Below, piece by piece: positions 1 to 58,913 of a DNA stretch of 64,000 bases (position 1 is its first letter; every line of letters begins with the position of its first letter). A program made the position numbers and the translations under genes. The stretch lies in NCBI GenBank assembly GCA_964362215.1, contig CAYIDJ010000001.1, forward strand, positions 13,151 through 77,150. Reading direction: 5' to 3'. Source of the stretch: an uncultured Candidatus Saccharibacteria bacterium. GTDB taxonomy: Bacteria > Patescibacteriota > Minisyncoccia > UBA6257 > XYB1-36-10. Under the pieces are notes generated by a model. It did no database searches, had not been told where the DNA came from, and was given only the letters and a program-made list of their open reading frames with translations.

Positions 1-44
1 GCTACTTCCTCATCCGGCAAATTTTGGGCTTCTGATAAACTCAT
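1..44 (-). CDS. N-terminal fragment of an unidentified gene that continues beyond the window start (MSLSEAQNLPDEEV...)
   Basis: The reverse complement of 1-44 begins with ATG and stays open to the window edge. No homology is assignable. Confidence 0.25.
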   Translation of the reverse strand, partial: MSLSEAQNLPDEEV

Positions 45-215
45 TTAATAATACCTGGCCTACAGCTCTAATGTTACTGAATATTCACATAAAAACCACC
101 TCCAGTCAACCCAGTTAGAAAACACCTGACCACACTCCTATCTCCTAACGTTCTTTATTCTTTGTCTTCTAACAGGGTCAATACCCTTCTCTATTGCCAT
201 TCCCGTTCCTCTCCT

Positions 216-244
216 GTCATTCCTGCGGAGGCAGGAATCCAGTC
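216..244. repeat. Family-3 short hairpin repeat (GTCATTCC-stem-GNRA-like loop-stem-GGAATCCAGTY), copy 1 of 5
   Basis: gtcattcctgcggaggcaggaatccagtc. The same architecture recurs at 16596, 24616, 42824 and 63775, with compensatory changes in the stem. Confidence 0.7.
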
Positions 245-353
245 CTCTCCGTCATTCTGAATCCGCCTTTAGTGGATGAAGAATCTCGCCACCCCCTTGC
301 CCCCATTCCCTATATAACTTAAACTTCAAATAGACCCTTTCAGGAGGTGTGCT

Positions 354-563
354 ATGAAGAAAATCCGCCTATCAGAATTTATCGGAGCCGAAATCAAAGT
401 TGCCCTTGGGCCTGTCAACCGCTAGTACACCGGTGAAGAAGTAAATCACGACCCCACCCCCGACGAAGCTATGGAACACTTCGTAACGTCCGGCGGCGCC
501 GAGAGATTTACCACCGAGCACCGGCAAGAATTCACCGAAGAAATTTCCGACGTCACTCAATGA
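354..563 (+). other. Small ORF with a strong Shine-Dalgarno site, interrupted by an in-frame TAG at 423-425 (24 codons, then 45 codons to TGA)
   Basis: caggaggtgtgctATG: AGGAGG lies 7 nt upstream of ATG 354. The frame continues past TAG to TGA at 561-563, followed by a hairpin plus T-run terminator. Confidence 0.3.
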
Positions 564-573
564 CGTCGGCATA

Positions 574-612
574 AGAAGCGGCCCCCAACCGCTTCTTTTC
601 TTGTATTTTAAA
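574..612 (+). terminator. Rho-independent terminator (aagaagcgg-cccccaa-ccgcttctt followed by a T-run)
   Basis: A perfect 9-bp stem followed by ttcttgtatttt. Confidence 0.6.
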
Positions 613-810
613 AAAGTCCGACCAAAGGAGAAATCTCAATACTGTATTCTTATTATTAGAATAAAAGTTATCGTAAGATAACTACCTCACTATCCAACCT
701 CTCCCCTAAATGGAGTGAGGTCTAATCAAAGGAAACTTATTAACATACTCGAGCGCATAAAGGCGTGGTACAAATTAATATCTTAGTTATATGGCAAATA
801 ACACTGTTTA

Positions 811-918
811 GAAGCCAAGCTTTCTGTTTGCTGGACCGCGCGGAGCTCGACTGGAGCGAGTCAGAGGAATTTTTTAGCCAAAAAATATCCGTGTCCAGCC
901 AACAGGAAGGTTGGCTTC
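811..918. repeat. Family-1 structured repeat, copy 1 of 8, nested inside a degenerate Family-2-like element spanning ~730-960
   Basis: gaagccaagctttctgtttgctggACCGCGCGGAGCTCGACTGGAGCGAGTCAGAGGAATTTTTTAGCCAAAAAATATCCGTGTCcagccaacaggaaggttggcttc. The flanks (catactcgagcgc ... ggtagcgagagtatg) match the Family-2 ends. Confidence 0.75.
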
Positions 919-995
919 TTCTCGCCGCAAATAAACGTTGGTAGCGAGAGTATGTTGGCGAGGTGCCATTAAGGCCTCACTATACTTAATACTTC

Positions 996-1553
996 TCATT
1001 CATACCTCGGCCCCTCCTCCCCGACCCCCGCCCGCTTGTTCGCCGCTCGCGCCAGCGCGTAAAGAAGCGACGACAGCCGGTTCAAATATTTTCCCGTCTG
1101 CTCCCCAATTTTTATTTCCCCCGCCTCCGCCGCCGCTCTCACTCTCCTTTCCGCCCGCCTCGCCATTGTCCGCGCCACGTCCAGCATCGCCGAAAGCTCC
1201 GTTCCCCCCGCCACTAAAAATGTTTTAATCGGCGGCAATTCTTTTTCAATCCCGTCCGTAATCTCCTCCTCCCATCGCACCTTCTCCTCACTGATCGCCT
1301 TCTCCGCTCCCGCCACCTCCGCCTGCGCGATAAACAAATCCTCCTGCGCCTGTTGCAATATGTCGCGGAATCTCATCTGCCCGCCCGCCGCCGCAAACAT
1401 CTTCTCTTCCGCTTTAACCTTCACCAACCCCAAAAACGAGTTTATCTCATCCAGCGCCCCTAGCGCCTCCGCCACCGCCGACGCCTTAGACACCCTTCCC
1501 TCGCACCCAAACATTTTTGTCGTCCCGTCGTCCCCTTTTCGCGTATAAAGCAT
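996..1553 (-). CDS. ATP:cob(I)alamin adenosyltransferase, PduO type
   Basis: N-terminal MLYTRKGDDGTT motif and a helical-bundle length (185 aa) typical of PduO-type adenosyltransferases. Confidence 0.8.
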   Translation of the reverse strand: MLYTRKGDDGTTKMFGCEGRVSKASAVAEALGALDEINSFLGLVKVKAEEKMFAAAGGQMRFRDILQQAQEDLFIAQAEVAGAEKAISEEKVRWEEEITDGIEKELPPIKTFLVAGGTELSAMLDVARTMARRAERRVRAAAEAGEIKIGEQTGKYLNRLSSLLYALARAANKRAGVGEEGPRYE

Positions 1554-1593
1554 AAATTAAATAATACCCCTACTCCAAAATGTCCCCACCCGA

Positions 1594-1854
1594 TTATTCT
1601 TTATAAACCTCATGGTCTCCCACCGCCAATAAAACCGCCTCGCTTTTAGATACATAATCAAAAACAATCCTCGTCTTATAATTCACCGAAAAACTGTGTC
1701 GTCCCGCTAATCTCCCCTTAAGTTTGTGTACTTTAAGTTGTTTGTGGTTTCTCGCCTTTTTAAGCTGCTCAATCTTTTCCACCACCTCTTCCTGAAGCTC
1801 AGCTTCCAACAACTTAAACTGCCTTACAAAAGCCGGCTTAAAATAAACCTCCAT
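1594..1854 (-). CDS. Type II toxin, RelE/ParE (YoeB-like) family
   Basis: 86 aa. C-terminal GRLAGRHSFSVNYKTRIVFDY...LLAVGDHEVY matches the RelE/StbE fold signature, and a small antitoxin gene lies immediately upstream. Confidence 0.7.
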   Translation of the reverse strand: MEVYFKPAFVRQFKLLEAELQEEVVEKIEQLKKARNHKQLKVHKLKGRLAGRHSFSVNYKTRIVFDYVSKSEAVLLAVGDHEVYKE

Positions 1855-1859
1855 ATTAA

Positions 1860-2066
1860 TTAAAGTTTTTTAGCCAGCTTTCTTAAATCCCCCTTCAGGG
1901 TCGGCTCCTGCTCTGCCCTCAAAACTGCCTGCACCGCTTCTTCCTCCGCTAACAAAACCAACGCCTTCCTCACCACGTCCGCCTTATTTGCTCCATATCC
2001 TTTTTTCACCAGCATCTCTACTAATTCTTCCAGCTTAGGAGACACCGGCACCGATAACGTGCTCAT
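1860..2066 (-). CDS. Putative antitoxin partner of the RelE-like toxin
   Basis: 68-aa ORF ending 6 nt before the toxin start. It is small and helical (VRKALVLLAEEEAVQAVL). Confidence 0.5.
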   Translation of the reverse strand: MSTLSVPVSPKLEELVEMLVKKGYGANKADVVRKALVLLAEEEAVQAVLRAEQEPTLKGDLRKLAKKL

Positions 2067-2253
2067 AATAATTATGTTAAATTATAATACGATATTATCA
2101 TACCTCATCTGCTCTCCAGAATCAATAGTTTTACCCCCATTTTCCCCCCTTGACAAACACCCACCACCTGATATATATCTATTGTAGAACACTTGAAAGG
2201 AGGTGATTCTATTGAAGGTCGTAACCACCTATCCGAACGCGGCTTTTTACTTT

Positions 2254-2288
2254 CCCCAACAAAAATCCCCGCCAAACCAGCGCGGGGA
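2254..2288 (-). terminator. Rho-independent terminator T1 (tccccgcg-ctggtttgg-cgggga plus T-run, read on the minus strand)
   Basis: GC stem followed by TTTTTGTTGG on the minus strand, 27 nt downstream of the 2315..2707 gene. Near-identical copies lie at 2726 and 3265. Confidence 0.65.
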
Positions 2289-2314
2289 AATTTAATCCTT
2301 CTCTTCACTTAAAA

Positions 2315-2707
2315 CTAAACCTCTCCTTTCTCAAGTTTAAGTGCCTCACCCTTAAGTTTTTCACTTAACTCATCTTCTCCTTCCTGCCACGCTTGCTCGG
2401 CTGCATCTCTAAAAGCGTCTATTGCCGCCTCTCGTAATCCCGCATCACGATAAATTTCTGCCACCTCAACATTAAGCTCTAAAACGTCTTTGCTGTTCTT
2501 AACCTCTCCTTCCCGCCTATCTAAATATCTATGCAACAAAGATAAATCTTCTGGATTTTTTAGCAGGAATTCAACTACGTCTTTTTTGGATATTTCCCTC
2601 TCTTCTTTAGAAATTTCTTTTTCTTTAGAAGCCCCCTCCTCACCAGTATTTAAAGACGAATCCAGACTAGGTGGTTTTTCAAACATATTACATTTATTAT
2701 ATACCAC
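2315..2707 (-). CDS. Hypothetical acidic protein (130 aa)
   Basis: Open frame with coding-like composition. No recognisable motif. Flanked by copies of the same terminator. Confidence 0.45.
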   Translation of the reverse strand: MVYNKCNMFEKPPSLDSSLNTGEEGASKEKEISKEEREISKKDVVEFLLKNPEDLSLLHRYLDRREGEVKNSKDVLELNVEVAEIYRDAGLREAAIDAFRDAAEQAWQEGEDELSEKLKGEALKLEKGEV

Positions 2708-2725
2708 TTCCTCTAAATAATCAAT

Positions 2726-2757
2726 CCAACAAAAATCCCCGCCGAACTTCGCGGGGA
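2726..2757 (-). terminator. Rho-independent terminator T2 (same sequence family as T1 and T3)
   Basis: ccaacaaaaatccccgccgaacttcgcgggga, downstream of hicA on the minus strand. Confidence 0.6.
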
Positions 2758-2769
2758 AATAAAACTTGT

Positions 2770-2991
2770 TTATTTTAACAACTCTAAAAATTCCTCCACC
2801 GAAATACTCGCGTCTCTGATAATTTTTCTTATCAGCCCTCTGCTTATCGTTTTATAATTCGGTACCGTTACCGGCCTCCGACTCTCGTGATGTAAACGAA
2901 AATGGCTACCTCGTTGCCTCACCACTCGATAGCCAATTTTCTCCAACGACTTTACTAATTTTATTCCGGAAACAGCCGGCCAACTAGACAT
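2770..2991 (-). CDS. hicA: HicA-family toxin (mRNA interferase)
   Basis: ...GIKLVKSLEKIGYRVVRQRGSHFRLHH... is the canonical HicA (YcfA) core. Start chosen at the internal Met. The gene overlaps the upstream hicB by a few nucleotides. Confidence 0.75.
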   Translation of the reverse strand: MSSWPAVSGIKLVKSLEKIGYRVVRQRGSHFRLHHESRRPVTVPNYKTISRGLIRKIIRDASISVEEFLELLK

Positions 2992-2992
2992 A

Positions 2993-3214
2993 CTAAATGG
3001 AAACCGTATACAAGCCAACTTCTGAAGGATTGTATGACTTCAATATCTCCTTATTCTCTTTTTCTTCCAAACAAATACCTATTACCTCTTTAATGCCTGC
3101 TAACGCCTCGTCCAAACTCTTGCCTTGTGTATAACAACCCTTAAAAAGCGGGCACTCCACGACATAAGCGCCATCCTTATCTTTTTCCACTAAAATAGGA
3201 AATTTATTTTTCAT
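2993..3214 (-). CDS. hicB: HicB-family antitoxin
   Basis: MKNKFPILVEKDKDGAYVVECPLFKGCYTQGKSLDEALAGIKEVI matches the HicB/UPF0150 N-domain. The longer ORF start at 3319 would read through terminator T3, so the start is trimmed to 3214. Confidence 0.7.
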   Translation of the reverse strand: MKNKFPILVEKDKDGAYVVECPLFKGCYTQGKSLDEALAGIKEVIGICLEEKENKEILKSYNPSEVGLYTVSI

Positions 3215-3264
3215 CCCCATAAATATACCCGTTTCTCCCATAAAAATCAAGGGAATATATAAAA

Positions 3265-3302
3265 TCCCCCAACAAAAATCCCCGCCAAACCAGGTACGGG
3301 GA
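3265..3302 (-). terminator. Rho-independent terminator T3 (third copy of the same terminator sequence)
   Basis: cccccaacaaaaatccccgccaaaccaggtacgggga. It lies between the RHH gene and hicBA. Confidence 0.55.
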
Positions 3303-3455
3303 TTAAACCGTTTTTTCAATACCTCACCACTACCACATTAAACGACCACACTGCACCCGAGTTCGAAACAACGCCGCCTGCCGATTCAATCTTCGCTGCC
3401 TCTCCATAAACTCATCCAGCCACTCCAACCTCTCCCGCCTCCTATTTTGTATTTT

Positions 3456-3677
3456 TTATCTCCAGGCATTGCTGTGGGATACGCGCCGCTTATCAGACCT
3501 CAACCTGTCCGAAGCAATTTTTTCCCACCCCGCGTCTTCTTCAATCTCTATCGCCAAGCGCAACAACTCAGCCGCTTTTGTCGCCTCCGGCATGCTATCC
3601 CGCTTAGCTAAATTCTTTATTGCCTTTTCCATCGGCTCCGACACACTCACGTTTATCCTTTTTTTATCCGTAGACAT
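3456..3677 (-). CDS. Ribbon-helix-helix (CopG/RelB-like) antitoxin-type DNA-binding protein, with no adjacent toxin
   Basis: 73 aa. KRINVSVSEPMEKAIKNLAKRD is the typical RHH beta-strand/helix N-terminus. Confidence 0.5.
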   Translation of the reverse strand: MSTDKKRINVSVSEPMEKAIKNLAKRDSMPEATKAAELLRLAIEIEEDAGWEKIASDRLRSDKRRVSHSNAWR

Positions 3678-3776
3678 AAATAAAGTGTATCACCTCTGTC
3701 AAATCAACCTAGTTTTGAAATTTGAAAATTGTTTAGAAATTAGAGTTTAGGATTTAGAATTTGAAGCGAAGCGCCG

Positions 3777-3850
3777 TGGGTGCCTAGAGGGAATCGAACC
3801 CTCGCGACCAGCTCCACAAGCTGGAGTTCTACCATTAAACTATAGGCACC
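3777..3850 (-). tRNA. tRNA-His (anticodon GTG), with the extra 5' G(-1)
   Basis: GGTGCCTATAGTTTAATGGTAGAACTCCAGCTTGTGGAGCTGGTCGCGAGGGTTCGATTCCCTCTAGGCACCCA. Anticodon loop TTGTGGA. G-1 pairs with C73. Confidence 0.9.
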
Positions 3851-3985
3851 ATCTATCAAACCAATTATACTCTACCCCCTGCCTCACCTAGCCGTCAACT
3901 AAAATAAAATTGACAACAACCCATAAACAATAAATAATAAAATTAGAACATTTAAAATATACTTATAGAAATGAGGTGACTATTA

Positions 3986-4183
3986 ATGAAACAACCAAAG
4001 GAAAAAAAGAAAATCAGTATCACTCAAAAACAGTTAAAGCGCCTTAATAGAGAGCTACCGAATGGTATTCATGTTGTTTTCGGCACACTGCCTGTTACCG
4101 ATGAAGATGTAGAAATGGCTATCAAGTGCGGCAGCGAGAGCCTGGAATATGCAAAGAAAAAATATCCTGAAAAGTTCAAATAG
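3986..4183 (+). CDS. Small hypothetical protein (65 aa)
   Basis: Shine-Dalgarno-like gaaatgaggtga lies upstream of the ATG. Lys-rich. No homology recognised. Confidence 0.35.
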   Translation: MKQPKEKKKISITQKQLKRLNRELPNGIHVVFGTLPVTDEDVEMAIKCGSESLEYAKKKYPEKFK

Positions 4184-4699
4184 GATAAAAAAACCAACCA
4201 GTAAAGTAAGGAGAAGTTAAAATGTCAAAACCAAAAAACACGGAAAACAACGAGGTTAGCACCCAATCAACTCCAACTCCAAAAAAAACATCCTCGTGAT
4301 TACTCCCCCACACCACAGGAAAAAAAGCTTCTTCATAATTTATCCGAATAGGAAAAAAGGGGAGAAGAATCACTCGAAGAATGCATCGTCGGACTTCCCG
4401 TACGAAAACCATGGGAATAATACCGCTCAAAACTTATCACCCGGACGCCCCCAGCGTCCGTTTTTATTTTTACCAATACTCTTAACTTAAATATTTGACA
4501 ACCAATTAATTTACTGCTTAACTAAGCACAGTATAAAACTACGGAAAAGGAGTAATAAAATGGTAATCAAAGGAAAGAGACCGAGAAAGGCTGACCTCTT
4601 ACCAAAAAAAACCATCTTCGTCATCGTCCCAAAAAAACTGCCGGAAGATGACCAAAATAAAAAACTAGAAAGAAAAGTAATCCCCTTCCCCGGAAAAAA

Positions 4700-5569
4700 T
4701 TAATTCCGGGGATTTGTTTTTATTTTTTCTTCCTCTATTGTCTTCTCTACCGTCTCCCACACCTTATTATCCAAACGCGGACGTTTGGCTTGGCTCATCT
4801 CAATACCATCAAGTACCTTTTTGAAATAATCTTTCACCTCTCCATACACCCTCTTCACTTTCGCGTTATGAGAAACGTCCTTAAAGTATTCCGACTGTGA
4901 AACTATCATTTCTAACATCTGCCTCTTCAAATCGCCTATTTCCAAAATCTCTTCCTGTTTATTATCCCTTAACTTCCTTACTAACTCCGTAGTTATTGAC
5001 TTAAACGCCTCCACGTCCATCCCTAAAACTATCTTCGGTAAATCTCTTATTTCTCGCTTGTATTCCTCCGCGTACGATTCAAAATATTTAACCTTGCTTA
5101 ATCTTTCCTCTAAAGCATCCTCCTTAGTGCTCAAAACTTTTTTCTTCGCCGACTCCTCGCTTACTGTCACATCCACCGCCATCCTCCTCCACTCATTTTC
5201 CCCAACTGGAAATTCTATCACCAAATCCGCCCCGCCCCTCACGTCATCAAAATCACTCGTCAAATAGGTATATGTTTCTTCTCCCAACCAATTTGACTTT
5301 TCAATCTGGTCAAACATCATCCATTCCACCACGCTGGCTATCTGGTGTTTTTCTTTATCTCCGTATCTGCTCTTACTAAGCCTTAATGACTCCTTATCTC
5401 CCTTTATTACCAGTTCTCCATAAACATCATCAAAGTCTTCCATCCGTAGCTTTCCGTCTCTCACTATTTTTTCAAAATAATCATAAAGCCACTGTTCATC
5501 GCCACTTAACTCCCGCTCTGATTGAGTATATTTATTAAAAAGGGCTTCTCTTGGATTTGGTATCACCAT
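4700..5569 (-). CDS. Hypothetical protein (289 aa), acidic and helical
   Basis: Long ORF with coding-like composition, followed by a bidirectional hairpin terminator (ccccggaaaaaattaattccgggg) at ~4684-4735. Confidence 0.5.
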   Translation of the reverse strand: MVIPNPREALFNKYTQSERELSGDEQWLYDYFEKIVRDGKLRMEDFDDVYGELVIKGDKESLRLSKSRYGDKEKHQIASVVEWMMFDQIEKSNWLGEETYTYLTSDFDDVRGGADLVIEFPVGENEWRRMAVDVTVSEESAKKKVLSTKEDALEERLSKVKYFESYAEEYKREIRDLPKIVLGMDVEAFKSITTELVRKLRDNKQEEILEIGDLKRQMLEMIVSQSEYFKDVSHNAKVKRVYGEVKDYFKKVLDGIEMSQAKRPRLDNKVWETVEKTIEEEKIKTNPRN

Positions 5570-5733
5570 AGTATGTAAAAACTCGCCTTAGTTTGAAATT
5601 TATTTATAATTTGTTTCTTGCCTGCCCCGTGGTGGAGCTTTACGGGGCCTGCCCCGAGCGAAGTCGAGAGGCCTGCCCCGTGTCCGCCTTCGGCGGATCT
5701 ACGGGAGTTATTGGAGTTTATCGCTCCGCGATT

Positions 5734-5807
5734 GGTGCCGCGGGAGGGAATTGAACCCCCGACGCCAGCCTCTTCAGGGCTGCGCTCTACCACTGAGCTA
5801 CCGCGGC
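5734..5807 (-). tRNA. tRNA-Phe (anticodon GAA), CCA encoded
   Basis: GCCGCGGTAGCTCAGTGGTAGAGCGCAGCCCTGAAGAGGCTGGCGTCGGGGGTTCAATTCCCTCCCGCGGCACCA. Confidence 0.9.
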
Positions 5808-5963
5808 CTCATCTTATTTTAAAAACAAAAAAATACTCTCACCGGGCGCCCCTTCATATCACTGCTCGAACCCTGTCCGCCCACTGGCGGAACTGAGCTA
5901 CCGCGGCTTTTAAATTATCAACTGGTCTTCAGTTTATATAAAACCCCTTACTCTTTCAATATA

Positions 5964-6035
5964 AACCTTGTCGGGCCGCCGGGAATCGAACCCGGTCTAC
6001 ATGCTCCCAAAGCATACGTACTACCGGTATACTAC
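5964..6035 (-). tRNA. tRNA-Pro (anticodon TGG)
   Basis: CGGGCCGTAGTATACCGGTAGTACGTATGCTTTGGGAGCATGTAGACCGGGTTCGATTCCCGGCGGCCCGA. Anticodon loop TTTGGGA. Confidence 0.85.
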
Positions 6036-6112
6036 GGCCCGTACCTACTCCATCACCCTACCAGAAAAACAATTGCTTAACAAGTAAAAAAATGTCATAG
6101 TATATTAATTCT

Positions 6113-6184
6113 GTCCCCGTAGTTCAATGGATAGAACAAAGGACTTCTAATCCTTAGATCGAGGTTCGAATCCTCGCGGGGACA
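6113..6184 (+). tRNA. tRNA-Arg (anticodon TCT)
   Basis: GTCCCCGTAGTTCAATGGATAGAACAAAGGACTTCTAATCCTTAGATCGAGGTTCGAATCCTCGCGGGGACA. Confidence 0.9.
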
Positions 6185-6250
6185 CACTATTTCTAAATAA
6201 GATCCGCCTGCCTTTAGGCAGGCTACATTCACATCCAACTTCTTCCCTCA

Positions 6251-6446
6251 AGATGCGGATGTTGATTAATTAGTGTCTTAATAAATATGCCTTAAGCGCG
6301 CATCCGAGCCCGAGCGGGCATGGTTCCGCCGAAGAGGCGGAGAGCGAGGGCGAGGCGTAGTGAAAACTCTCGCTGGGAGTTTGAACGGTAGCGAAAGGCA
6401 TATTTATTAAGACACGCCTACCTCGCATATTCCATTCATCCGCATC
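6251..6446. repeat. Family-2 structured element, copy 1 (conserved core AAGCGCGCATCCGAGCCCGAGCGGGCA...GAGCGAGGGCGAGGCGTAG...ACGGTAGCGA inside covarying outer stems)
   Basis: Outer stem gtgtcttaataaatatgcct/aggcatatttattaagacac (6273-6415), plus a further outer pair agatgcggatg/catccgcatct. Homologous copies lie at 57997 and 58914. Confidence 0.75.
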
Positions 6447-6449
6447 TCC

Positions 6450-7061
6450 CTACTGCGCCGTCATGCTCTTCAACTTCTCAATCGCGTCTTGATACTGTTT
6501 ATTAAGGTCGTTTATCGCCGTCACCTCGTCGTTTATCTTTCCTATCACCGACCCTATTCTGTCCGGCGCCACCACCCCGCCGTCAAACTTGTTTTGTAAA
6601 ATTGACAGCAGTTCGTTCAAAAACCTTCCGTAGTTAAGAAGGCGGATAATAAGCGTCGTCTCATGGTTAATTGCCTTCAACGCCGTGTCCGTCGCCGCCC
6701 GCGGTGTTACCTCCGACAACACCTCCGCCATTTTCCGCAACTCCAGTGACAAATCATATGCCTTCTGTTGCAGCTCTCCCGTTCGCCGTATTTCCTCCCG
6801 CACCAACTCTATCGCCTCTCTCTGTCTCCCTTCCCGATCAAAATCATTTATTCGTCCTAAATTTCGCCCCGACTCCGCTGATAAATCCACTATCTGGCTG
6901 GCAATAATCGCTCCCGAACGATTTGCCTCTAAAAACTGGTCCGGCACGTGCGAATCCGTGGCTAAAACCAAAAACCACAGCAAATATACTGCCACCATTA
7001 CCACGGCAAAAACTGACCAAAAAACAGTTCTTTTTGAAATTCGGCTCAATGCGAATGCCAT
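6450..7061 (-). CDS. Hypothetical membrane-anchored protein (203 aa, N-terminal transmembrane helix, coiled-coil)
   Basis: N-terminal hydrophobic segment WSVFAVVMVAVYLLWFLVLA. No recognisable domain. Confidence 0.45.
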   Translation of the reverse strand: MAFALSRISKRTVFWSVFAVVMVAVYLLWFLVLATDSHVPDQFLEANRSGAIIASQIVDLSAESGRNLGRINDFDREGRQREAIELVREEIRRTGELQQKAYDLSLELRKMAEVLSEVTPRAATDTALKAINHETTLIIRLLNYGRFLNELLSILQNKFDGGVVAPDRIGSVIGKINDEVTAINDLNKQYQDAIEKLKSMTAQ

Positions 7062-7158
7062 AATTCCTTCTCTTTGAGATTAGCGCGACGCCGACAAATA
7101 ATCAATCTCCCCCCTACTTCCTACTTTACAGATTTTCAACTTTTAACTTTAAACTAAA

Positions 7159-7232
7159 CTGGAGCGGGTAGGGGGAATCGAACCCCCGGCAACAGGTTGG
7201 AAACCTGTGGTATTGCCACTATACGATACCCG
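7159..7232 (-). tRNA. tRNA-Gly (anticodon TCC), CCA encoded
   Basis: GCGGGTATCGTATAGTGGCAATACCACAGGTTTCCAACCTGTTGCCGGGGGTTCGATTCCCCCTACCCGCTCCA. Confidence 0.9.
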
Positions 7233-7462
7233 CGTATTTAAATTTCTACACTACTCTCGCAACGCTCGCTATCCAATAAACGTATCATACCGGTCAAAAC
7301 CGCATTTTAGCAAGCCCCTATCCTAAAAACAAACTATCCCCAACCCTTATTGGCGTAACTATTGGCCGCCATCTGATAAACAAGGTATAATGAAAACGTA
7401 ACCTTGGAAGTATTAAACGTAACCTCATAACTGCTAAATCTAATTTTCCGAAACCCCATCCA

Positions 7463-7491
7463 TTGACCTAAAGAAAATAATGTTTTAATAT
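7463..7491 (+). promoter_or_regulatory. Sigma-70-type promoter candidate, TTGACC-N17-TAATAT, upstream of the ECF sigma operon
   Basis: -35 TTGACC (7463-7468), 17-nt spacer, -10 TAATAT (7486-7491), ~85 nt upstream of the ATG at 7574. Confidence 0.45.
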
Positions 7492-7573
7492 AGTAATTAT
7501 TTAATAAGCCGCGTCAAGTTGCCGCCAACAGCCAAAAGTCCCTTTTTTACAGCATAAATCGGTAACTAAATAC

Positions 7574-8152
7574 ATGTTTACTTCGTTGTCTATGTTAGCT
7601 GGCGATGAAAATATAATAGTCAAAAAAGCTAGAGCTGGTCACGCTGAAAGTTTCGGCCAGCTTTATGATGAACATCACGAACGCATCTACCGCTTTATCT
7701 ACCTCAAAGTCCGCGGTAAGGAAGAAGCTGAAGACCTCACTCATCAAGTGTTCTTAAGCGCCTGGCAGAATATCAAACAGTATGCCCTTAAAAATCTTCC
7801 TTTCTCCAGCTGGCTTTACCGCATCGCCCGCAACAAAGTTATTGACTACTATCGATTGCGTAAACAAACCGTCAACATCGAAGCCGTCAAAAACGTAATT
7901 CCCGCTGAAACCGACATTCTCGCCAGCGCTGACACCGATATGGAAACCCGGGCAATTCATTCCGCTATCTCCGGCTTAACTCCGGAACAGCAAGATGTTG
8001 TCATTATGCGCTTTGTGGAAGATATGCCCATCAAAGAAGTCGCCCGCTCTATCGGTAAAACTGTCGGCGCCGTCAAACTCATTCAGTTCCGCGCCATCAG
8101 CAAACTAAAAAACATTACCAATAACCATGGAGAAAATAATAGAGAATCTTAA
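7574..8152 (+). CDS. RNA polymerase sigma factor, ECF (sigma-70 group 4) family
   Basis: Region-2 motifs (YRFIYLKVRGKEEAEDLTHQVFLSAW, SSWLYRIARNKVIDYYR) and a region-4 HTH (PIKEVARSIGKTVGAVKLIQFRAISKL). Confidence 0.85.
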   Translation: MFTSLSMLAGDENIIVKKARAGHAESFGQLYDEHHERIYRFIYLKVRGKEEAEDLTHQVFLSAWQNIKQYALKNLPFSSWLYRIARNKVIDYYRLRKQTVNIEAVKNVIPAETDILASADTDMETRAIHSAISGLTPEQQDVVIMRFVEDMPIKEVARSIGKTVGAVKLIQFRAISKLKNITNNHGENNRES

Positions 8153-14021: not shown

Positions 14022-14117
14022 TTTAAACTTTAATATTTATTATCTTTCTTATAATTTGTAATTTAGAAATTAGGATTTATTTAGAGTTTAGGATTTAGAG
14101 TTTAGAGTTTAATCAAT

Positions 14118-16492: not shown

Positions 16493-16595
16493 CTTCCCCT
16501 TTGTCACTTGCCCGAACAACTCCGTTGGGCGGATTCCCGCGGCCTTTAGTCCTCGCGTCAGCGGGGAGGGAATCCATCTCCTCTTCTTCCCTTCT

Positions 16596-16624
16596 GTCAT
16601 CCCAGCGAAAGCTGGGATCCAGTC
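16596..16624. repeat. Family-3 hairpin repeat, copy 2
   Basis: gtcatcccagcgaaagctgggatccagtc. Confidence 0.7.
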
Positions 16625-16726
16625 CCCCCCTCCGTCCTTCCAAGTCCACCCACATCAAACAATAAATCTCCGTCTTCCAGTTATTGTATTTAACTATCGT
16701 ATCTTGTATCTTTTTATTGTCTTTAT

Positions 16727-19074: not shown

Positions 19075-19208
19075 TAAACAACTACCCTCCCAGAGGCGAA
19101 TACTATAGTCAACTAAACAAACTTAAAAGTAAAAAATCTTTTTGCTCAAAACCATAAGGCGCCTCGCCAACAAAATAAACATCGCAACCAACTAAACAGG
19201 ATGGAAAA

Positions 19209-19306
19209 GAAAAAACTTCCTTTCGAGACCGCGCGGAGCACGACGGTGCGAGTCAGAGTGATTTTTTAGCAAAAAAATACACGTGTCTCGAAAGGAAGTT
19301 TTTTCT
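19209..19306. repeat. Family-1 structured repeat, copy 2 (between convergent holA and rpsT)
   Basis: aaaaaacttcctttcgagACCGCGCGGAGCACGACGGTGCGAGTCAGAGTGATTTTTTAGCAAAAAAATACACGTGTCtcgaaaggaagtttttt. Confidence 0.8.
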
Positions 19307-19358
19307 GAAAAATACAAAAAGGTGAATATTCTACGTCCACCTATTATTCATCAAATAC

Positions 19359-19619: not shown

Positions 19620-19762
19620 ACTGGTACAAGATACCGGAATCCCTTCCTAAAATCAATCCCCGTTCTTCCCTCTCCGGTTTTAATATTTATAATTTTGTCC
19701 AATAATCCCAACCTCGTCTTCGTTGAGGACTCGCGACTCCTGTCGGAGAATTTTGAGTTTTA

Positions 19763-20500
19763 CTATTGTTTAGAGTTTAGTCCGCCTCCGCCAACTGGCG
19801 GATGGCGAATTGATTTTCTAAATTCCAATTGTCTCTCTATCACCCTAAAATCCCCCTCCAGCGCCTCCCTCATGCCGCGGTTATAAACCGCCACCGCCGG
19901 GTGGTAAAGCGGAACAAAAGTCACCGGACCGTACTCCATTTCCGTTTCAAATACTTTTCCGTGCGCCTGACTTATCGGCTCTATCAGCTCCCTCATCCCA
20001 TACCGCTCCATAAGATAAATCATCGCGAACCTCCCCAGCGCCGCGATTATCTCCGGTTTTATTATGGCTATCTGCCTATCCAAAAAAGGCGCGTAAAGCT
20101 CTATCTCCTGCGGTAACGGGTCGCGATTGTTTGGCGGCCTGTCTTTTAAAATATTGGTGATGTATACCTCGTTCCGCGGCAGATTTATCAGTTCCAAAAG
20201 CTCGTCCAACACCTTCCCCGCCGCCCCGCAAAACGGCCTTCCCTGTTCCGCCTCATTCTTTCCCGGCGCCTCCCCCACCAACATCACGCTGGCAAAATGA
20301 TCCCCCTCGCCCACCACTGGTTTAACTCTGGTAGCGTATAGAGGCGATTCTTTGAGGTCAATTACTCCATCCCTCACCTCCTTCAGCGCCTCATACCTCT
20401 GCCTCCGTTCCTCTTCAGTTATCTCTCCGTTTTTCCCCATACTTAATACCTTCTTTATACTTCCTAATGCCGCCATCATACTACACCTCTCAAAAAACAA
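19763..20500 (-). CDS. Uracil-DNA glycosylase, family 4
   Basis: GEAPGKNEAEQGRPFCGAAGKVLDELL (motif A) and HPA (motif B, in VPLYHPAVAV). The true start may be an internal Met. Confidence 0.8.
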   Translation of the reverse strand: MFFERCSMMAALGSIKKVLSMGKNGEITEEERRQRYEALKEVRDGVIDLKESPLYATRVKPVVGEGDHFASVMLVGEAPGKNEAEQGRPFCGAAGKVLDELLELINLPRNEVYITNILKDRPPNNRDPLPQEIELYAPFLDRQIAIIKPEIIAALGRFAMIYLMERYGMRELIEPISQAHGKVFETEMEYGPVTFVPLYHPAVAVYNRGMREALEGDFRVIERQLEFRKSIRHPPVGGGGLNSKQ

Positions 20501-20533: not shown

Positions 20534-20676
20534 TAAAACGACTTCTCCGCAAGACCGCGCGCCCGCCCGACCAGAACAACTAGTCGTTCGGGCGGGGAGT
20601 CCGCCAACTGGCGGACGAGTCAGAGTGATTTTTCAGCGGAAAAATACACGTGTCTTGCGGAGAAGTCGTTTTTATC
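20534..20676. repeat. Family-1 structured repeat, copy 3 (variant with a 50-nt insertion replacing helix P2)
   Basis: ...caagACCGCGCG[cccgcccgaccagaacaactagtcgttcgggcggggagtccgccaactggcgga]CGAGTCAGAGTGATTTTTCAGCGGAAAAATACACGTGTCttgc... The inserted segment itself forms two hairpins. Confidence 0.75.
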
Positions 20677-24584: not shown

Positions 24585-24615
24585 AAATTGTTTCTTAGTT
24601 CGTCATTTCACTTCT

Positions 24616-24644
24616 GTCATTCCAGCGGAAGCTGGAATCCAGTT
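24616..24644. repeat. Family-3 hairpin repeat, copy 3 (rpmI-rplT intergenic)
   Basis: gtcattccagcggaagctggaatccagtt. Confidence 0.7.
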
Positions 24645-24684
24645 CCAATGTTCACTTTTGACTTTATGGACTTTTGGCTTATTT

Positions 24685-42781: not shown

Positions 42782-42823
42782 TATTCACAATTTGCCCATC
42801 TATATGTCATTCTCGCTCTCCAT

Positions 42824-42852
42824 GTCATTCCCGCGAAGGCGGGAATCCAGTC
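42824..42852. repeat. Family-3 hairpin repeat, copy 4
   Basis: gtcattcccgcgaaggcgggaatccagtc. Confidence 0.7.
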
Positions 42853-42907
42853 CCAAGGTTTGTAATTTTGTCCGATAATCCCGACCTTATCTTCATCGAG
42901 GAAAAAA

Positions 42908-43423: not shown

Positions 43424-43495
43424 TTCCTAAAATAATTTAATTTTGGTTGGTTAACCTAATCTTCCTCGCTAAAAAATTTAACATCTACACTGTAA

Positions 43496-43592
43496 GAAAA
43501 AGCTTCCTTCCGAGACCGCACGGAGCACGACGGTGCGAGTCAGAGTGATTTTTCAGCAGAAAAATACACGTGTCTCGGAAGGAAGCTTTTTC
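43496..43592. repeat. Family-1 structured repeat, copy 4 (3' of ruvB)
   Basis: gaaaaagcttccttccgagACCGCACGGAGCACGACGGTGCGAGTCAGAGTGATTTTTCAGCAGAAAAATACACGTGTCtcggaaggaagctttttc. Confidence 0.8.
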
Positions 43593-43634
43593 TGAAAGAC
43601 AAAAGACACAAGAAGACAAACTGTACATCTAATA

Positions 43635-44684: not shown

Positions 44685-44736
44685 ACCAAAATCCTCTTAC
44701 CCCCACACCATTGACAAACACGAATAAATAATATAA

Positions 44737-44836
44737 AGAAAAAGCTTTCTTTCGAGACCGCGCGGAGCTCGACTGGAGCGAGTCAGAGGGATTTTTTAGC
44801 AAAAAAATACCCGTGTCTCGGAAGGAAGCTTTTTCT
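44737..44836. repeat. Family-1 structured repeat, copy 5 (preceded by a promoter-like TTGACAAACAC...TATAAA at 44711-44736)
   Basis: gaaaaagctttctttcgagACCGCGCGGAGCTCGACTGGAGCGAGTCAGAGGGATTTTTTAGCAAAAAAATACCCGTGTCtcggaaggaagctttttc. Confidence 0.8.
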
Positions 44837-44926
44837 GAATATAAGCGCTATCCATTGACTCATTATCAATACTATGCTATAATAAGGCAGTTTTGGACAA
44901 ATTACCCTATCTCGCCTCTCTTTGAT

Positions 44927-45304: not shown

Positions 45305-45414
45305 GGAAGCCAAGCTTTCTGTTTGCTGGACCGCGCGGAGCTCGACTGGAGCGAGTCAGAGGGATTTTTTAGCAAAAAAATACCCGTGTCCGGCAAATAG
45401 AAAGATTGGCTTCC
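45305..45414. repeat. Family-1 structured repeat, copy 6 (outer stem identical to copy 1; part of a duplicated composite with a Family-2-like fragment at ~45250-45300)
   Basis: gaagccaagctttctgtttgctggACCGCGCGGAGCTCGACTGGAGCGAGTCAGAGGGATTTTTTAGCAAAAAAATACCCGTGTCcggcaaatagaaagattggcttcc. Confidence 0.8.
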
Positions 45415-45469
45415 TACTACCGCAAACAGAAAATATGTTGGTAAACCGCCAATCTACCATTTTAAATTT

Positions 45470-49768: not shown

Positions 49769-49820
49769 CTACTTTGTAATTTTGAATTTTGATATTGTTT
49801 AGGATTTAGAGTTTATATTT

Positions 49821-50440: not shown

Positions 50441-50534
50441 GCGGCTTTTTCCATAAGACCGCGCGGAGTCCGACGGGACGAGTCAGAGGGATTTTTTAGC
50501 CAGAAAATACCCGTGTCTTATGGAAAAAGCCGCC
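50441..50534. repeat. Family-1 structured repeat, copy 7 (between convergent ruvC and the class A PBP)
   Basis: gcggctttttccataagACCGCGCGGAGTCCGACGGGACGAGTCAGAGGGATTTTTTAGCCAGAAAATACCCGTGTCttatggaaaaagccgcc. Confidence 0.8.
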
Positions 50535-53432: not shown

Positions 53433-54536
53433 TCACGACTTCACCGGCATTAGAATATAAATATAAGAATCATCACTTGAATCCTTTATTGCCGTCGGTT
53501 TGTCTTTAAAATTAACTTTCAATTTTATCTCTCCCCCTTTTACCGACCTAATACCGGATAAAAGATAGTGCCAGTTAAAAACAACTTTTCCCCCTCCTCC
53601 CGCCACCTTTGCCGGCACTAAATATTTATTTTCCCCAACCCCCTGACTCATTGATGTAATCTCTATAAAATTCTTATTCACGGCCAGAGTCACATCCGAT
53701 ATTTTACTGGATAAAACACTGACTACTTTAAGCGCCGTCACCATCTCCTCTTTTAAAGCTACCACCTCTGTATCGTAAGCGCTTGGAATTATTTGTTTAT
53801 AATCAGGAAAACTACCGTCAATTAAATGAGATACTATCATCACCCCCTCTCCCGAAAACATAATTTGATTTGAATCAATATAAATCTTAACCTCTTCTCC
53901 TTCCGGTAAAACCCTAATTAATTCGTTTACTGTTTTAAGCGGCGCAATTAAAGACCAACCCTCATCGCCCTTCAGAGAAAATTCGTCTTTATAAATAATT
54001 CTTTCCGCTAAACGAAAACTGTCTGTTCCCGCTATTCTTAATTCATTATTTTCTGCCGATATAAAAATTCCGTTTATCTCTGGCCTTAATTCGGAAAACG
54101 TCGTCGCTGACATCACTTGCGCTATTATTTCTTTTAATCTCGCCGCTGGTAAAATTAAAACTGGATCTTTATTGGTAATATTTGGAATAATCGGAAAATC
54201 ATCAACGGCTAAAGTTTGAATTTGTGCCTCATAATTATCCGTTTGAATGTTAAATTTATCTTTTTCTGTGCTTAAATTAACCACCTCACTCGTTAGATTT
54301 GAAATTATTGAGCTAAAAACACCAGCTGGTACTGTTACCGCTCCCGACTCAATAATCTTTCCCGGACATATCTGTGTCACTCCTATCTCTAAATTTGTCG
54401 CCGATAGTTTTATCTCTCCATTATCAACTTTAATTAATAAATTCTTAAGTATTGGTAAATTAGAAGATTCATTGCAAATTTTTGCCACAATTTCCACCAC
54501 TCTTTTTAAATTATTTTTTACAAATACTAATTTCAT
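53433..54536 (-). CDS. dnaN: DNA polymerase III beta sliding clamp
   Basis: MKLVFVKNNLKRVVEIVAKI..., 367 aa with three-domain clamp organisation, immediately downstream of dnaA. Confidence 0.85.
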   Translation of the reverse strand: MKLVFVKNNLKRVVEIVAKICNESSNLPILKNLLIKVDNGEIKLSATNLEIGVTQICPGKIIESGAVTVPAGVFSSIISNLTSEVVNLSTEKDKFNIQTDNYEAQIQTLAVDDFPIIPNITNKDPVLILPAARLKEIIAQVMSATTFSELRPEINGIFISAENNELRIAGTDSFRLAERIIYKDEFSLKGDEGWSLIAPLKTVNELIRVLPEGEEVKIYIDSNQIMFSGEGVMIVSHLIDGSFPDYKQIIPSAYDTEVVALKEEMVTALKVVSVLSSKISDVTLAVNKNFIEITSMSQGVGENKYLVPAKVAGGGGKVVFNWHYLLSGIRSVKGGEIKLKVNFKDKPTAIKDSSDDSYIYILMPVKS

Positions 54537-54667
54537 TCTTAAAATCTAACTCTCTTTATATTATATATATTTATTATTATAGTAATACTTTATCTTTTCC
54601 TGTTAAAAACAATAAATTATCCACTATTTAACGTATTTTAATATATAATAAGATGTTAATAATATGT
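54537..54667. other. Candidate oriC segment (AT-rich dnaA-dnaN intergenic region with a DnaA-box TTATCCACT)
   Basis: 131 bp, ~85% AT, with TTATCCACT at 54617-54625 (8/9 match to TTATCCACA). Flanked by dnaA and dnaN. Confidence 0.4.
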
Positions 54668-57903: not shown

Positions 57904-57996
57904 AAATAAAAATCCGCCCCCTAGGCGGATTACTTTTTCATCCAACTTCCATTTCATCCAACTTCCATCTTCTAATTATAATCAGATCATATAAAT

Positions 57997-58147
57997 AGCT
58001 CGCTAATATACTCAAGCGCGCATCCGAGCCCGAGCGGGCACGGTTCCCCTCTCTTTCCTGCTCTGTAAGAGAGGGGGGAGCGAGGGCGAGGCGTAGTCCA
58101 TTCCCTCGCTGGGGGAATGGACGGTAGCGAGAGTATATTGGCAAGCT
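57997..58147. repeat. Family-2 structured element, copy 2 (between convergent jag and clpP)
   Basis: agctcgctaatatactcAAGCGCGCATCCGAGCCCGAGCGGGCAcggttcccctctc...gagaggggGGAGCGAGGGCGAGGCGTAGtccattccctcgctgggggaatggACGGTAGCGAgagtatattggcaagct. Confidence 0.8.
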
Positions 58148-58747: not shown

Positions 58748-58913
58748 ATTCTTTATAATAAACGATTATTCCACTACCGTCAAATACATAAACCACAATT
58801 CATCTATAAATAAAAGTTACCTTGAGGTAACTACCTTAAGTCCAACTCCATCCCCCTATGGTTGGCAACTTAAAAAGCATCTCACTGATATACGATTACA
58901 ATATTAATTAGAT

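Follow-up and report, generated by a model that had tools for sequence, protein, structure and literature searches.

A terminator-like repeat in three copies among toxin-antitoxin and other small genes beside tRNA-His in a CPR genome

A 64-kb stretch of DNA (the window), part of an 80.6-kb contig from a groundwater CPR bacterium of the Parcubacteria with a Nomurabacteria/Paceibacterota-like genome, contains an islet of small minus-strand genes in which a terminator-like element, termed E, occurs three times. The copy number of E given here is that of the window, where the element is restricted to this one locus. The copies have the anatomy of intrinsic terminators, are homologous by sequence, and coincide with the points at which homology to two relatives breaks off. 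E is probably one intrinsic terminator sequence that has been copied locally, punctuating a turnover-prone spot between tRNA-His and a PduO-type adenosyltransferase gene and marking or mediating recombination junctions there. The units run in the order RHH-like ORF, hicB-hicA, acidic protein and ParD-like/RelE-like pair; each would have a TTGATT-type promoter, with E between the units. The immediate role of E would be to insulate neighbouring units against read-through, which matters for autoregulated toxin-antitoxin (TA) operons. The copies may have spread and stayed similar through local recombination accompanying the gain and loss of small modules, whether by unequal or illegitimate exchange or by gene conversion between short repeats, so that they would come to lie at module junctions. 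The array exists as described but is a fairly ordinary one, and it does not amount to an integron.

Sequence and Fold of the Repeat Element

The 18-mer CCAACAAAAATCCCCGCC is present in three exact copies on the plus strand of the window (2256-2273, 2726-2743 and 3269-3286; pattern search). There are no further matches in the 64 kb with up to three mismatches allowed (chance expectation 0.27), and a repeat search recovers the same three-member family, its members 470 and 543 nt apart. Read on the minus strand, in the gene sense, the unit is (G)TTTTA-ATTTCCCCGCG-loop-GGCGGGGATTTTTGTTGG. An earlier sequence-only reading had described a 35-nt element; its three copies are real, and the unit is slightly longer at ~40-45 nt. 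The copies are E1 (2254-2291), E2 (2724-2765) and E3 (3265-3309), all on the minus strand. A covariance model built from four E copies and run over the whole window with filters off scores them at 65.1, 62.1 and 55.6 bits, respectively, against 17.8 bits for the next best site. The 18-mer, these scores and the fold with its U-tract bear out the claim that the same terminator-like element is present three times.

On the minus strand E forms a 7-bp stem with six GC pairs and a loop of 8-9 nt, followed by UUUUUGUU (U5GUUGG). Pieces of 56 nt from all three copies fold into the hairpin and then U5 at -15.8 to -16.6 kcal/mol, with modest z-scores (-0.9 to -2.3). The four copies, few and very similar, show compensatory base changes at 0 of 7 pairs (RNAalifold), and the hairpin is backed by energy rather than by covariation. 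No Rfam family matches E; over positions 1-8000 Rfam returns tRNAs only.

The sequence ATTTCCCCGCG is common to E1 and E2; between E1 and E3, 27 bases are identical, loop included. E3 is damaged in its 5′ arm, with CCCCGTAC where the others have CCCCGCG, giving a weaker, interrupted, 9-pair stem. The tails vary (GTTGGGG, GTTGGAT or GTTGT..). The 3′ arm with its tail is invariant across all copies, even in a half copy of a relative that lacks the hairpin, whereas the 5′ arm differs among them. A constraint on termination alone would not predict this pattern, and it counts against the favoured explanation.

The arrangement is reproduced at 99.96% identity in two independent assemblies (L036 and L037, replicates of Hainich groundwater well H43), so the E array is no assembly artefact. 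These assemblies derive from the same population as the window and add no independent evidence for E.

Placement and Predicted Termination

All three copies present a GC-rich stem-loop with a U-rich tract directly after it on the transcribed strand, and lie downstream of a stop codon in gene orientation (E3 at ~150 nt). This is the anatomy of intrinsic (Rho-independent) terminators, and termination is predicted on the gene strand. E1 begins 24 nt past the stop of the acidic ORF and E2 ~5-10 nt past that of hicA. The claim that E follows each transcription unit holds for these two; E3 matches its gene in orientation and lies ~150 nt past the stop of the RHH-like ORF, not directly behind it. This distance, and the 230 nt by which the full E of one relative, L031, follows a gene, count against the terminator explanation.

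A census found 31 sites in the window with a hairpin and T-run. Those other than E are unlike it, and unlike each other except for the two strands of bidirectional hairpins. The sequence-only reading had raised the case of a generic terminator found after core genes as well; within the 64-kb window no further E is present and the ~30 other terminator-like hairpins differ from it, so E is not the window's generic terminator.

The stem followed by T5GTTGG also occurs in Undibacterium, Aeromonas, Devosia and others, as single unrelated terminators with different loops and flanks. Stem and tail thus arise easily elsewhere; a lone copy is therefore meaningless, and the clustering is the signal. This recurrence in many unrelated bacteria would also suit the idea that the three copies are independent terminators, alike by chance or convergence. 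That idea can hardly be credited: the convergent matches share stem and tail only, not the loop or the 5′ flank, whereas E1 and E3 share a loop, and three of ~31 terminators fall within 1 kb with none of their kind elsewhere in the window. Together with the gap between 55-65 and 17.8 bits, this effectively refutes convergence. On the sequence evidence the three copies are homologous and related by descent, not look-alikes.

No locus with multiple copies of E was found in 185,579 species genomes or in JGI metagenomes (exact-pattern scans, hairpin included). A scan of viral contigs for the 3′ half of E gave three unrelated single matches only, and the block from E3 to E1 has no match among annotated phages and plasmids (blastn, 'distant' mode). 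A CRISPR-like array was ruled out, as the 470- and 543-nt spacings contain genes.

Genes of the Islet and Its Borders

The upstream border is tRNA-His (GTG) at 3778-3849 on the minus strand (ARAGORN; Rfam tRNA, 67.7 bits), 100 nt from the start of the RHH-like ORF as the sequence-only reading had placed it. A second copy of the tRNA 3′ 23-mer is absent from the window, even at three mismatches. An integrase-mediated tRNA island was ruled out, given neither this repeat nor an integrase among the scanned ORFs. The conserved downstream flank is the PduO-type ATP:cob(I)alamin adenosyltransferase gene (996-1553, minus strand; Pfam PF01923, 1.1e-44; TIGR00636; homologs), which serves as the synteny anchor for comparing relatives. 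GC content is 0.38-0.44 in the islet against 0.60 in this gene.

The 73-aa ORF next to the tRNA (3456-3677, minus strand) had been read as a lone RHH antitoxin. Pfam, NCBIfam, PHROGs and PADLOC yield no match for it at E ≤ 0.1, and its best PDB sequence match has E = 0.49. In a single-sequence model (pLDDT 73) the N-terminus is extended and two helices come after it; Foldseek finds nothing significant in the PDB for this model. The resemblance to RHH is one of secondary structure only, in the strand-helix-helix pattern. Beyond the TAA stop the frame remains open for another 41 codons; a degraded toxin at this place was considered and dropped, as neither the 41-codon extension nor the fusion matches any family.

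The hicB-hicA pair is confirmed. The antitoxin gene hicB (73 aa; 2993-3214, minus strand) matches PF15919 (HicB_lk_antitox; 1.4e-9, 38.6 bits against a cutoff of 27) and a HicB-like PHROG (1.3e-12). The toxin gene hicA (73 aa, beginning MSSWPAVSG; 2770-2991, minus strand) matches PF07927 (HicA_toxin; 2.9e-16, 59.7 bits against a cutoff of 27); its homologs begin at the same Met and the PHROG toxin match agrees. The two families in adjacent genes, antitoxin first with one base between them, identify a HicAB type II TA system. Canonical HicB carries a C-terminal RHH/HTH DNA-binding domain, whereas the HicB here consists of the N-terminal HicB_lk domain alone, without a DNA-binding domain. The order hicB then hicA is noted as a further difference.

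The annotated hicB start at 3319 is wrong, as had been proposed: that ORF crosses E3, and the preferred start is 3214. The Pfam profile begins at residue 5 of the 3214 version, and in the alignment to the relative L032 the only positions with coding-level conservation and an in-frame ATG are those of 3214 and of an alternative ATG at 3220. The promoter-like site TTGATT-17-TATATT (3222-3250, minus strand) upstream of hicB also favours 3214 and is kept in L032 (TTGATT...TATGTT). With this site ending at 3222, the hicB mRNA would start at about 3214 and is possibly leaderless. A promoter-like TTGATT-17-TAnnnT site follows each E: TTGATT-17-TATAAT upstream of the acidic gene (2696-2724, minus strand), which abuts E2, and TTGATT-17-TATGAT upstream of the ParD-like gene (2097-2125, minus strand) complete the set.

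The 123-aa acidic protein (2315-2686, minus strand) had been counted among the accessory genes of the TA islet, a placement that its relatives contradict. Its 20 homologs are all from Parcubacteria, and their alignment confirms the start Met. The AF2 model (pLDDT 82) has five helices, and the fold search returned weak TPR-like matches only. The family comprises helical proteins of ~100 aa, found in Parcubacteria only, and its neighbourhood is conserved in other genomes: His_Phos_1, acidic gene, 122-aa gene, VTT/DedA, prfB, ftsE, ftsX and pyrG. By sequence, the ORF is assigned to a lineage-specific helical protein rather than to a TA component.

The last pair had been described as a RelE/YoeB-like toxin with its antitoxin. 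The 86-aa toxin (1594-1854, minus strand) is itself below Pfam and NCBIfam cutoffs (HigB-like, 22 bits against 27). Among its aligned relatives a HigB-like match is found in 36 of 76 and YafQ in 26; the family profile matches YoeB, HigB and RelE3 structures (1e-4 to 5e-3), and the PHROG 'RelE-like toxin' is matched at 6.8e-8. The family alignment has an invariant H81 and Y84 and a nearly invariant G79. Profile and alignment place the protein convincingly in the RelE/ParE superfamily, as a predicted mRNA interferase whose subfamily is left at HigB/YafQ/YoeB-like. The partner is less secure: the 68-aa ORF (1860-2066, minus strand) is a ParD/RHH-like candidate, its TIGR02606 match (4.1e-6) lying at 26.8 bits, below the cutoff of 46.2, and its RHH_8 match at 0.025. 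PADLOC assigned no defence system.

An antisense module on the plus strand (2150-2295) was read directly from the sequence. It has a promoter-like TTGACA hexamer (2150-2155), a perfect Shine-Dalgarno sequence GAAAGGAGGTGA (2195-2206) and a 27-codon ORF with a TTG start (2212-2295) that runs into the E1 hairpin. The Shine-Dalgarno 15-mer is unique in the window, and the module is conserved in L032 as DNA, not as a peptide. The convergence of this conserved module on E1 could mean that E is chiefly regulatory, as a protein-binding operator or as an RNA motif (an attenuator coupling the modules, or the target of an antisense transcript from ~2185). The stricter conservation of 3′ arm and tail than of the 5′ arm, and the -35 hexamer directly abutting E2, are in keeping with such a role. 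It is nevertheless very improbable: the distance from E to the next promoter is variable (0, 22 and ~130 nt), no Rfam family corresponds, the antisense module faces E1 only, and of the possible binding proteins HicB has no DNA-binding domain and the RHH-like protein is unconfirmed.

Relatives and Breakpoints at E

Comparison of the locus in relatives, which the sequence-only reading had proposed, found E at the same place in two of them, L031 and L032, with different genes between the copies and homology breakpoints that coincide with the edges of E. L032 has a PduO protein 73% identical to that of the window and carries E, the same promoter and hicB-hicA at ~80% nucleotide identity. Its homology stops with the hicA stop codon and gives way to a different terminator. 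E thus stands before this hicBA and on that side only, and the idea that E is the terminator ending each cassette fails here. The tail of E1 with its flank in the window (TGTTGGGGAAAGTAAAAAGCCGCGT) matches the last hicA codons of L032 and the start of its terminator (score 38; shuffles 13.4 +/- 2.1, maximum 21). The block comprising E2, the acidic gene and E1 is therefore an indel with both ends at E.

L031 has a PduO protein 88% identical to that of the window and no TA genes at the locus. Its full E (1137-1172) is followed by two opposite-strand genes, an 85-aa gene and VTT/DedA, and then by the hairpin-less half copy AGCGGGGATTTTTGTTGT, 47 nt upstream of the PduO gene and identical to that of L032 over 18 nt. 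A C-to-T change in the 5′ arm of the L031 element keeps a U-G pair only on the gene-sense RNA, which fits a constraint on E at the RNA level. Within the window E1 and E3 are identical over 27 nt and the positional counterpart of E3 in L032 differs, which fits recent copying or gene conversion. The proposal of cassette-like assembly or recombination at the hairpin gains some support from the breakpoints in L031 and L032; the copying mechanism itself we infer. E is carried by three independent genomes, two of them contigs of ~3 kb and L032 cut inside E; in polarity, the indel may be either an insertion or a deletion. In deeper relatives the PduO gene directly follows a class II ribonucleotide reductase and E is not present. 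Loci of more distant homologs of PduO, HicA and the acidic protein (L038-L049) are likewise free of E, so its distribution is restricted to a narrow clade.

The same breakpoints would be expected of an attC-like or att-like site, at which a recombinase encoded elsewhere captures and excises small cassettes in an integrase-less array. The E copies are direct repeats around single small modules, the content between them differs among relatives with breakpoints at their edges, and the 3′ half with the GTTG tail shows no variation, not even in the copy without a hairpin. Chromosomal integrons typically carry TA cassettes. This reading is decidedly improbable in view of the structure of E. An attC site is an imperfect palindrome of 57-141 nt with R″(RYYYAAC)-L″ ... 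L′-R′(GTTRRRY) boxes and extrahelical bases, whereas E has ~40 nt, a single 7-bp stem and no RYYYAAC partner to its GTTGG tail upstream of the hairpin. A promoter-like site accompanies every module, and the 36 window ORFs scanned with Pfam include no tyrosine or serine recombinase and no integrase. The acidic gene is vertically conserved in the lineage rather than a mobile cassette, and E flanks the hicBA of L032 on one side only. The original caution against calling the locus an integron is upheld by the short repeats, the missing R″/R′ pair, the promoter-like sites and the lack of an integrase in the scanned ORFs.

A bolder proposal, and a long shot, is that E, and above all the invariant 3′ half GGCGGGGATTTTTGTTG, acts as a recombination site where small modules are exchanged within a narrow Parcubacteria clade by a trans-encoded or host function. 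If this is true, modules in a reduced CPR genome would be exchanged by a minimal cassette system that is built on a terminator and has no integrase, and the repeated terminator would be the cause of gene turnover at the locus rather than a by-product. Such module exchange would represent a new and very simple cassette mechanism where recognisable mobile elements are few.

Dispersed Repeats and Mobile Elements

E could also be a REP- or MITE-like mobile or dispersed palindromic repeat whose terminator shape is incidental and which a trans-acting enzyme has spread; the islet would then hold a local group of copies from a family present throughout the genome. Further families of small intergenic repeats are abundant in the window (a 110-140-nt element with at least seven copies, a 34-nt palindrome with five and a ~150-nt element with three), and in L031 E adjoins unrelated genes (Fic, VTT/DedA and PduO). 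Those families are dispersed, unlike E: its three copies all fall in 1.05 kb, and the remaining 63 kb has none, also by covariance model. The flanks of the three copies lack target-site duplications and have no terminal inverted repeats beyond the hairpin, no transposase or RAYT is encoded among the scanned ORFs, and all copies are direct and in gene orientation. The half copy of L031 resembles a recombination scar more than a transposed unit. A mobile repeat is accordingly an unlikely account of E, and local copying of a terminator is preferred.

Comparison with Known Systems

Repeated terminator families include the paired DNA-uptake sequences of Neisseria and Haemophilus and the REP elements of enterobacteria, which number hundreds to thousands of copies genome-wide. 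REP copies are dispersed between genes; they often cluster with alternating orientation, and a Y1 transposase (RAYT) is associated with them. E resembles these families as a short GC-rich palindrome with a T-run, reused in gene orientation at several gene ends. It differs in its confinement to 1 kb of the 64 kb examined, and it has no uptake-like density, no RAYT gene among the scanned ORFs and no conserved GTAG head.

Like integron arrays and CALINs, the islet consists of small same-orientation genes, TA pairs included, which are split by a repeated imperfect palindrome and vary between relatives at the repeats. Unlike them, it has a repeat that is terminator-like and too short and simple for attC, without an R″/R′ pair, and no IntI or attI was found (scanned ORFs). 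Its modules have promoter-like sites of their own, and the acidic gene, one of the 'cassettes', is conserved in the lineage.

To our knowledge, a repeated terminator at module junctions has not been described for TA high-turnover spots. In Photorhabdus, TA systems lie preferentially in such spots (PMC13617665). The islet is similar to these type II TA clusters in its adjoining HicBA and RelE/ParE-family pairs, low GC, position beside a tRNA and content that differs between close relatives. The host differs, being a CPR bacterium with a reduced genome, and no mobile-element genes were found nearby.

If E is a locally copied terminator, a streamlined CPR genome would keep TA and small lineage genes as separately promoted and separately terminated units in a variable spot, and a 40-nt terminator would have been propagated together with small modules. 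The locus contributes one case to what is known of gene turnover in Patescibacteria and leaves the general picture unchanged. For annotation, the gains are the hicB and hicA starts, possible leaderless transcripts and an acidic gene that should not be labelled TA.

Host and layout of the locus

The host of the window is a CPR bacterium of the Parcubacteria. In a homologue search, the best named relatives of the PduO-type adenosyltransferase (996-1553, minus strand), encoded downstream of the islet, were Nomurabacteria and Paceibacterota MAGs. Two contigs of the same population, L036 and L037, are 99.96% identical to the window and come from Hainich groundwater well H43, represented by assemblies ERZ1292626 and ERZ1292629.

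From tRNA-His (3778-3849), the upstream border of the locus, to the adenosyltransferase gene, the minus strand carries all notable features. Listed in the direction of transcription, these are a 73-aa RHH-like ORF (3677-3456), copy E3 of the terminator-like hairpin repeat E (3309-3265), hicB (3214-2993), hicA (2991-2770), copy E2 (2765-2724), a 123-aa acidic ORF (2686-2315) and copy E1 (2291-2254). A spacer of 187 nt separates E1 from a 68-aa ORF, the ParD-like partner (2066-1860), which is followed by the 86-aa ORF of a RelE-like toxin candidate (1854-1594), whose stop lies 40 nt from the adenosyltransferase start. The GC content of the islet region is 0.38-0.44, against 0.60 in PduO, which fits an accessory, high-turnover spot. 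This agrees with the description of chromosomal toxin-antitoxin (TA) systems in Photorhabdus as occupying high-turnover spots (PMC13617665).

Beyond tRNA-His, a low-GC stretch on the plus strand (3900-4720) holds three tiny lysine-rich ORFs, every one of which has a promoter-like site and a predicted terminator to itself. A 289-aa ORF (4700-5569, minus) has no match in Pfam, PHROG or PADLOC. At 53433-56029 (minus), dnaN, confirmed by Pfam, adjoins a probable dnaA, an ORF of 453 aa, and the window therefore probably takes in the chromosomal replication-origin region.

Gene content of the islet

The islet is a mosaic: HicBA and RelE-like/ParD-like make up two TA pairs, and beside them stands at least one gene native and specific to the lineage, the acidic gene, which is unrelated to TA systems. 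The identity of hicB-hicA is secure (HicA 59.7 bits and HicB 38.6 bits, against a Pfam cutoff of 27). HicB (2993-3214, minus) consists only of the N-terminal HicB-like domain of ~73 aa and is devoid of the usual C-terminal DNA-binding domain. The hicA start, ATG 2991 (MSSWPAVSG), is fixed by alignment with L032, an independent relative. The sequence-only reading had rejected the annotated hicB start at 3319, correctly: the TTG ORF from 3319 passes through E3, and coding-level conservation with L032 sets in at ATG 3220 and ATG 3214. For the L036 and L037 contigs gene callers chose ATG 3241, a codon that reads TGG in L032. A TTGATT-17-TATATT promoter-like site upstream of hicB ends at 3222, which makes a leaderless hicB mRNA from ~3214 plausible. 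The promoter-like sites of hicB and of the acidic gene are so near the ATGs that both predicted mRNAs would be leaderless.

The proposed RelE/YoeB-like toxin and antitoxin stand in part. The 86-aa protein alone falls under every curated cutoff in Pfam and NCBIfam, and its toxin family is given by relatives, structures and PHROG. It has 425 relatives among cluster representatives; those aligned are HigB-like in 36 of 76, YafQ in 26 of 76 and ParE_like in 14 of 76. The family profile matches the YoeB, HigB and RelE3 structures, the PHROG ‘RelE-like toxin’ profile matches at 6.8e-8, and H81 and Y84 are invariant in the family alignment, with G79 nearly so. The 68-aa partner is ParD-like below threshold.

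The 73-aa protein, previously read as a lone RHH antitoxin, has no profile or fold match in Pfam, NCBIfam, PHROG, PADLOC and PDB searches, and the strand-helix-helix pattern of its structure model is the only feature fitting RHH. Its frame is open for 41 codons past the TAA, up to E3 (3303-3458, minus); this may be the remnant of a gene or the result of a nonsense mutation that arose recently. Family matches to the extension were sought and none was found.

The acidic ORF had also been counted in the TA islet and is not a TA component. All of its 20 homologs come from Parcubacteria and are ~100 aa long. The protein is modelled with confidence as a bundle of five helices, for which the only fold matches are weak and TPR-like. 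Elsewhere the homologs occur in a conserved order: His_Phos_1, acidic gene, 122-aa gene, VTT/DedA, prfB, ftsE, ftsX, pyrG. Another Parcubacteria genome carries a tandem pair of 101-aa paralogs (L038 4613-5306; L039 104-797).

The repeat E

The three-copy repeat noticed in the sequence-only reading is real, as CCAACAAAAATCCCCGCC occurs exactly three times and is matched nowhere else in the 64 kb when up to three mismatches are allowed. It is not an assembly artefact, the same arrangement being present in both of the independent assemblies from this population. E1 and E3 have 27 identical bases in common, loop included; E1 and E2 share a 5′ part, ATTTCCCCGCG, and a 3′ part, GGCGGGGATTTTTGTTGG. 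Read on the minus strand, all three form a GC-rich hairpin with UUUUUGUU after it; in E3 the stem is interrupted by a 5′-arm change. In an unfiltered run over the window, a covariance model derived from four E copies scored E1-E3 at 55-65 bits, against 17.8 bits for the next best site. A TTGATT-type promoter-like site follows every copy, at 0, 22 and ~130 nt. A census of the window found 31 sites with a hairpin and T-run; all but E differ in sequence, and E is therefore not the generic terminator of the window.

E is probably a predicted intrinsic terminator that was amplified locally, within a variable, TA-bearing region of the Parcubacteria genome. It would insulate short, separately promoted units and would be copied locally, by or along with recombination at module junctions. 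A different reading, that E is a genome-wide REP-like family, draws on the several other dispersed small repeat families of the same genome and on the examination of E being confined to 64 kb of it; unlike those families, E is restricted to 1 kb of the window, and we regard this reading as unlikely.

The 3′ arm and tail are invariant across every E copy and the 5′ arm is variable, a pattern that is not accounted for by constraint on a terminator alone. This leaves some room for E as a recombination site, a decidedly improbable reading. L031, the other independent relative with E, has a single C to T substitution in its 5′ arm; the pair survives as a U-G wobble on the gene-sense RNA and not on the opposite strand, which weakly favours an RNA-level function.

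Comparison with relatives

E occurs in just two independent relatives, L031 (sample ERZ27293400) and L032 (sample SRR22388054), with PduO proteins 88% and 73% identical to that of the window, respectively. The L032 contig begins inside an E copy (…AGCGGGGATTTTTGTTGT), after which come the same promoter and hicB-hicA at ~80% nucleotide identity. Homology to the window ends with the stop codon of hicA, L032 having a different terminator next, and restarts inside the E1 tail of the window (window TGTTGGGGAAAGTAAAAAGCCGCGT against L032 TGTTAGGGAAATAAAAAGCCGCGT: score 38; shuffles 13.4 ± 2.1). The block E2-acidic gene-E1 is thus one indel relative to L032, with E at both ends.

Past the E1 tail, the homology runs on through a conserved antisense module (2150-2295, plus) opposite the TA genes. 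This comprises a TTGACA promoter-like hexamer, a perfect Shine-Dalgarno GAAAGGAGGTGA and a 27-codon TTG ORF into the E1 hairpin. The promoter/Shine-Dalgarno DNA is conserved in L032 and the peptide is not; rather than a protein, the module may specify an antisense or small RNA.

No TA genes are present at the locus in L031. A full E (1137-1172) lies 230 nt after a Fic-domain gene and is followed by two opposite-strand genes, an 85-aa gene and VTT/DedA. Beyond these, 47 nt upstream of PduO, is a hairpin-less half copy, AGCGGGGATTTTTGTTGT, which equals the L032 copy over 18 nt. Close relatives thus have different content at this locus, one set of genes replacing another, with the replacement boundaries at E. 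In deeper relatives PduO lies directly behind class II ribonucleotide reductase. E was found neither in these nor in close relatives of HicA and of the acidic protein in other lineages, and therefore belongs to a narrow clade.

Three observations make recombination-linked copying the most economical inference: the E copies stand as direct repeats where indels begin and end, L031 retains a half copy as a scar, and E1 and E3 (27/27) are more alike than E3 and its positional L032 counterpart. The likeness of E1 and E3 suggests a recent duplication or gene conversion. The common assembly mechanism proposed earlier for the modules is partly supported by the replacement boundaries at E edges in L031 and L032, recombination being its conjectural step.

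The locus is not an integron, as had been recognised: E lacks the length and complexity of an attC site and contains no R″/R′ pair, each module has a promoter-like site, and no integrase was found among the window ORFs scanned, the others being core genes such as those for RNase Y, RuvB, DnaN, YidC, ClpP, IF3 and trigger factor. The size of E, the missing R″/R′ pair and the modules’ own promoter-like sites likewise speak against a CALIN. A tRNA-integrated island was rejected, neither a tRNA 3′ repeat nor, among the same ORFs, an integrase being found, and so was a MITE identity of E, which shows no target-site duplication or terminal inverted repeats.

E-like sequences and other repeats

The E pattern with hairpin was found at 14 loci in 185,579 species genomes and 16 in JGI metagenomes, each single-copy, in unrelated organisms (e.g. 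Undibacterium, Aeromonas, Devosia, a Saccharibacteria MAG). The loops and flanks of all these loci differ. Their number is explained by convergence, since a rough count (7-nt stem, 4^-7, times GTTGG, 4^-5, over ~10^8 terminators) predicts about ten matches. Stem plus T5GTTGG is a terminator easily arrived at, and the sequence itself is not special; what is informative is that three E copies cluster in 1 kb and have loop and flank in common.

Other repeats are dispersed in the window. An intergenic repeat of 110-140 nt, MITE-like in look with a palindromic core AGACACGTGTATTTTTTTGCTAAAAAATCACTCTGACTCG..., has at least seven copies (811-931, 19207-19317, 20593-20655, 43494-43604, 44733-44853, 45306-45426, 50456-50518) and also occurs in L031 (2811-2943). 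The 34-nt palindromic repeat TTCTGTCATTCCAGCGGAAGCTGGAATCCAGTTC has five copies with no T-run after them (212-245, 16592-16625, 24612-24645, 42820-42853, 63771-63804). A family of ~150 nt has three (6272-6403, 57992-58139, 58909-59110), two of which flank the clpP gene region. The AT-rich intergenic motif TTTAGGATTTAGAGTTTAG lies at 3718-3768, 14059-14109, 19749-19780 and 49770-49820, and at 969-1010 in L031; one copy adjoins tRNA-His, and the L031 copy stands with no tRNA present.
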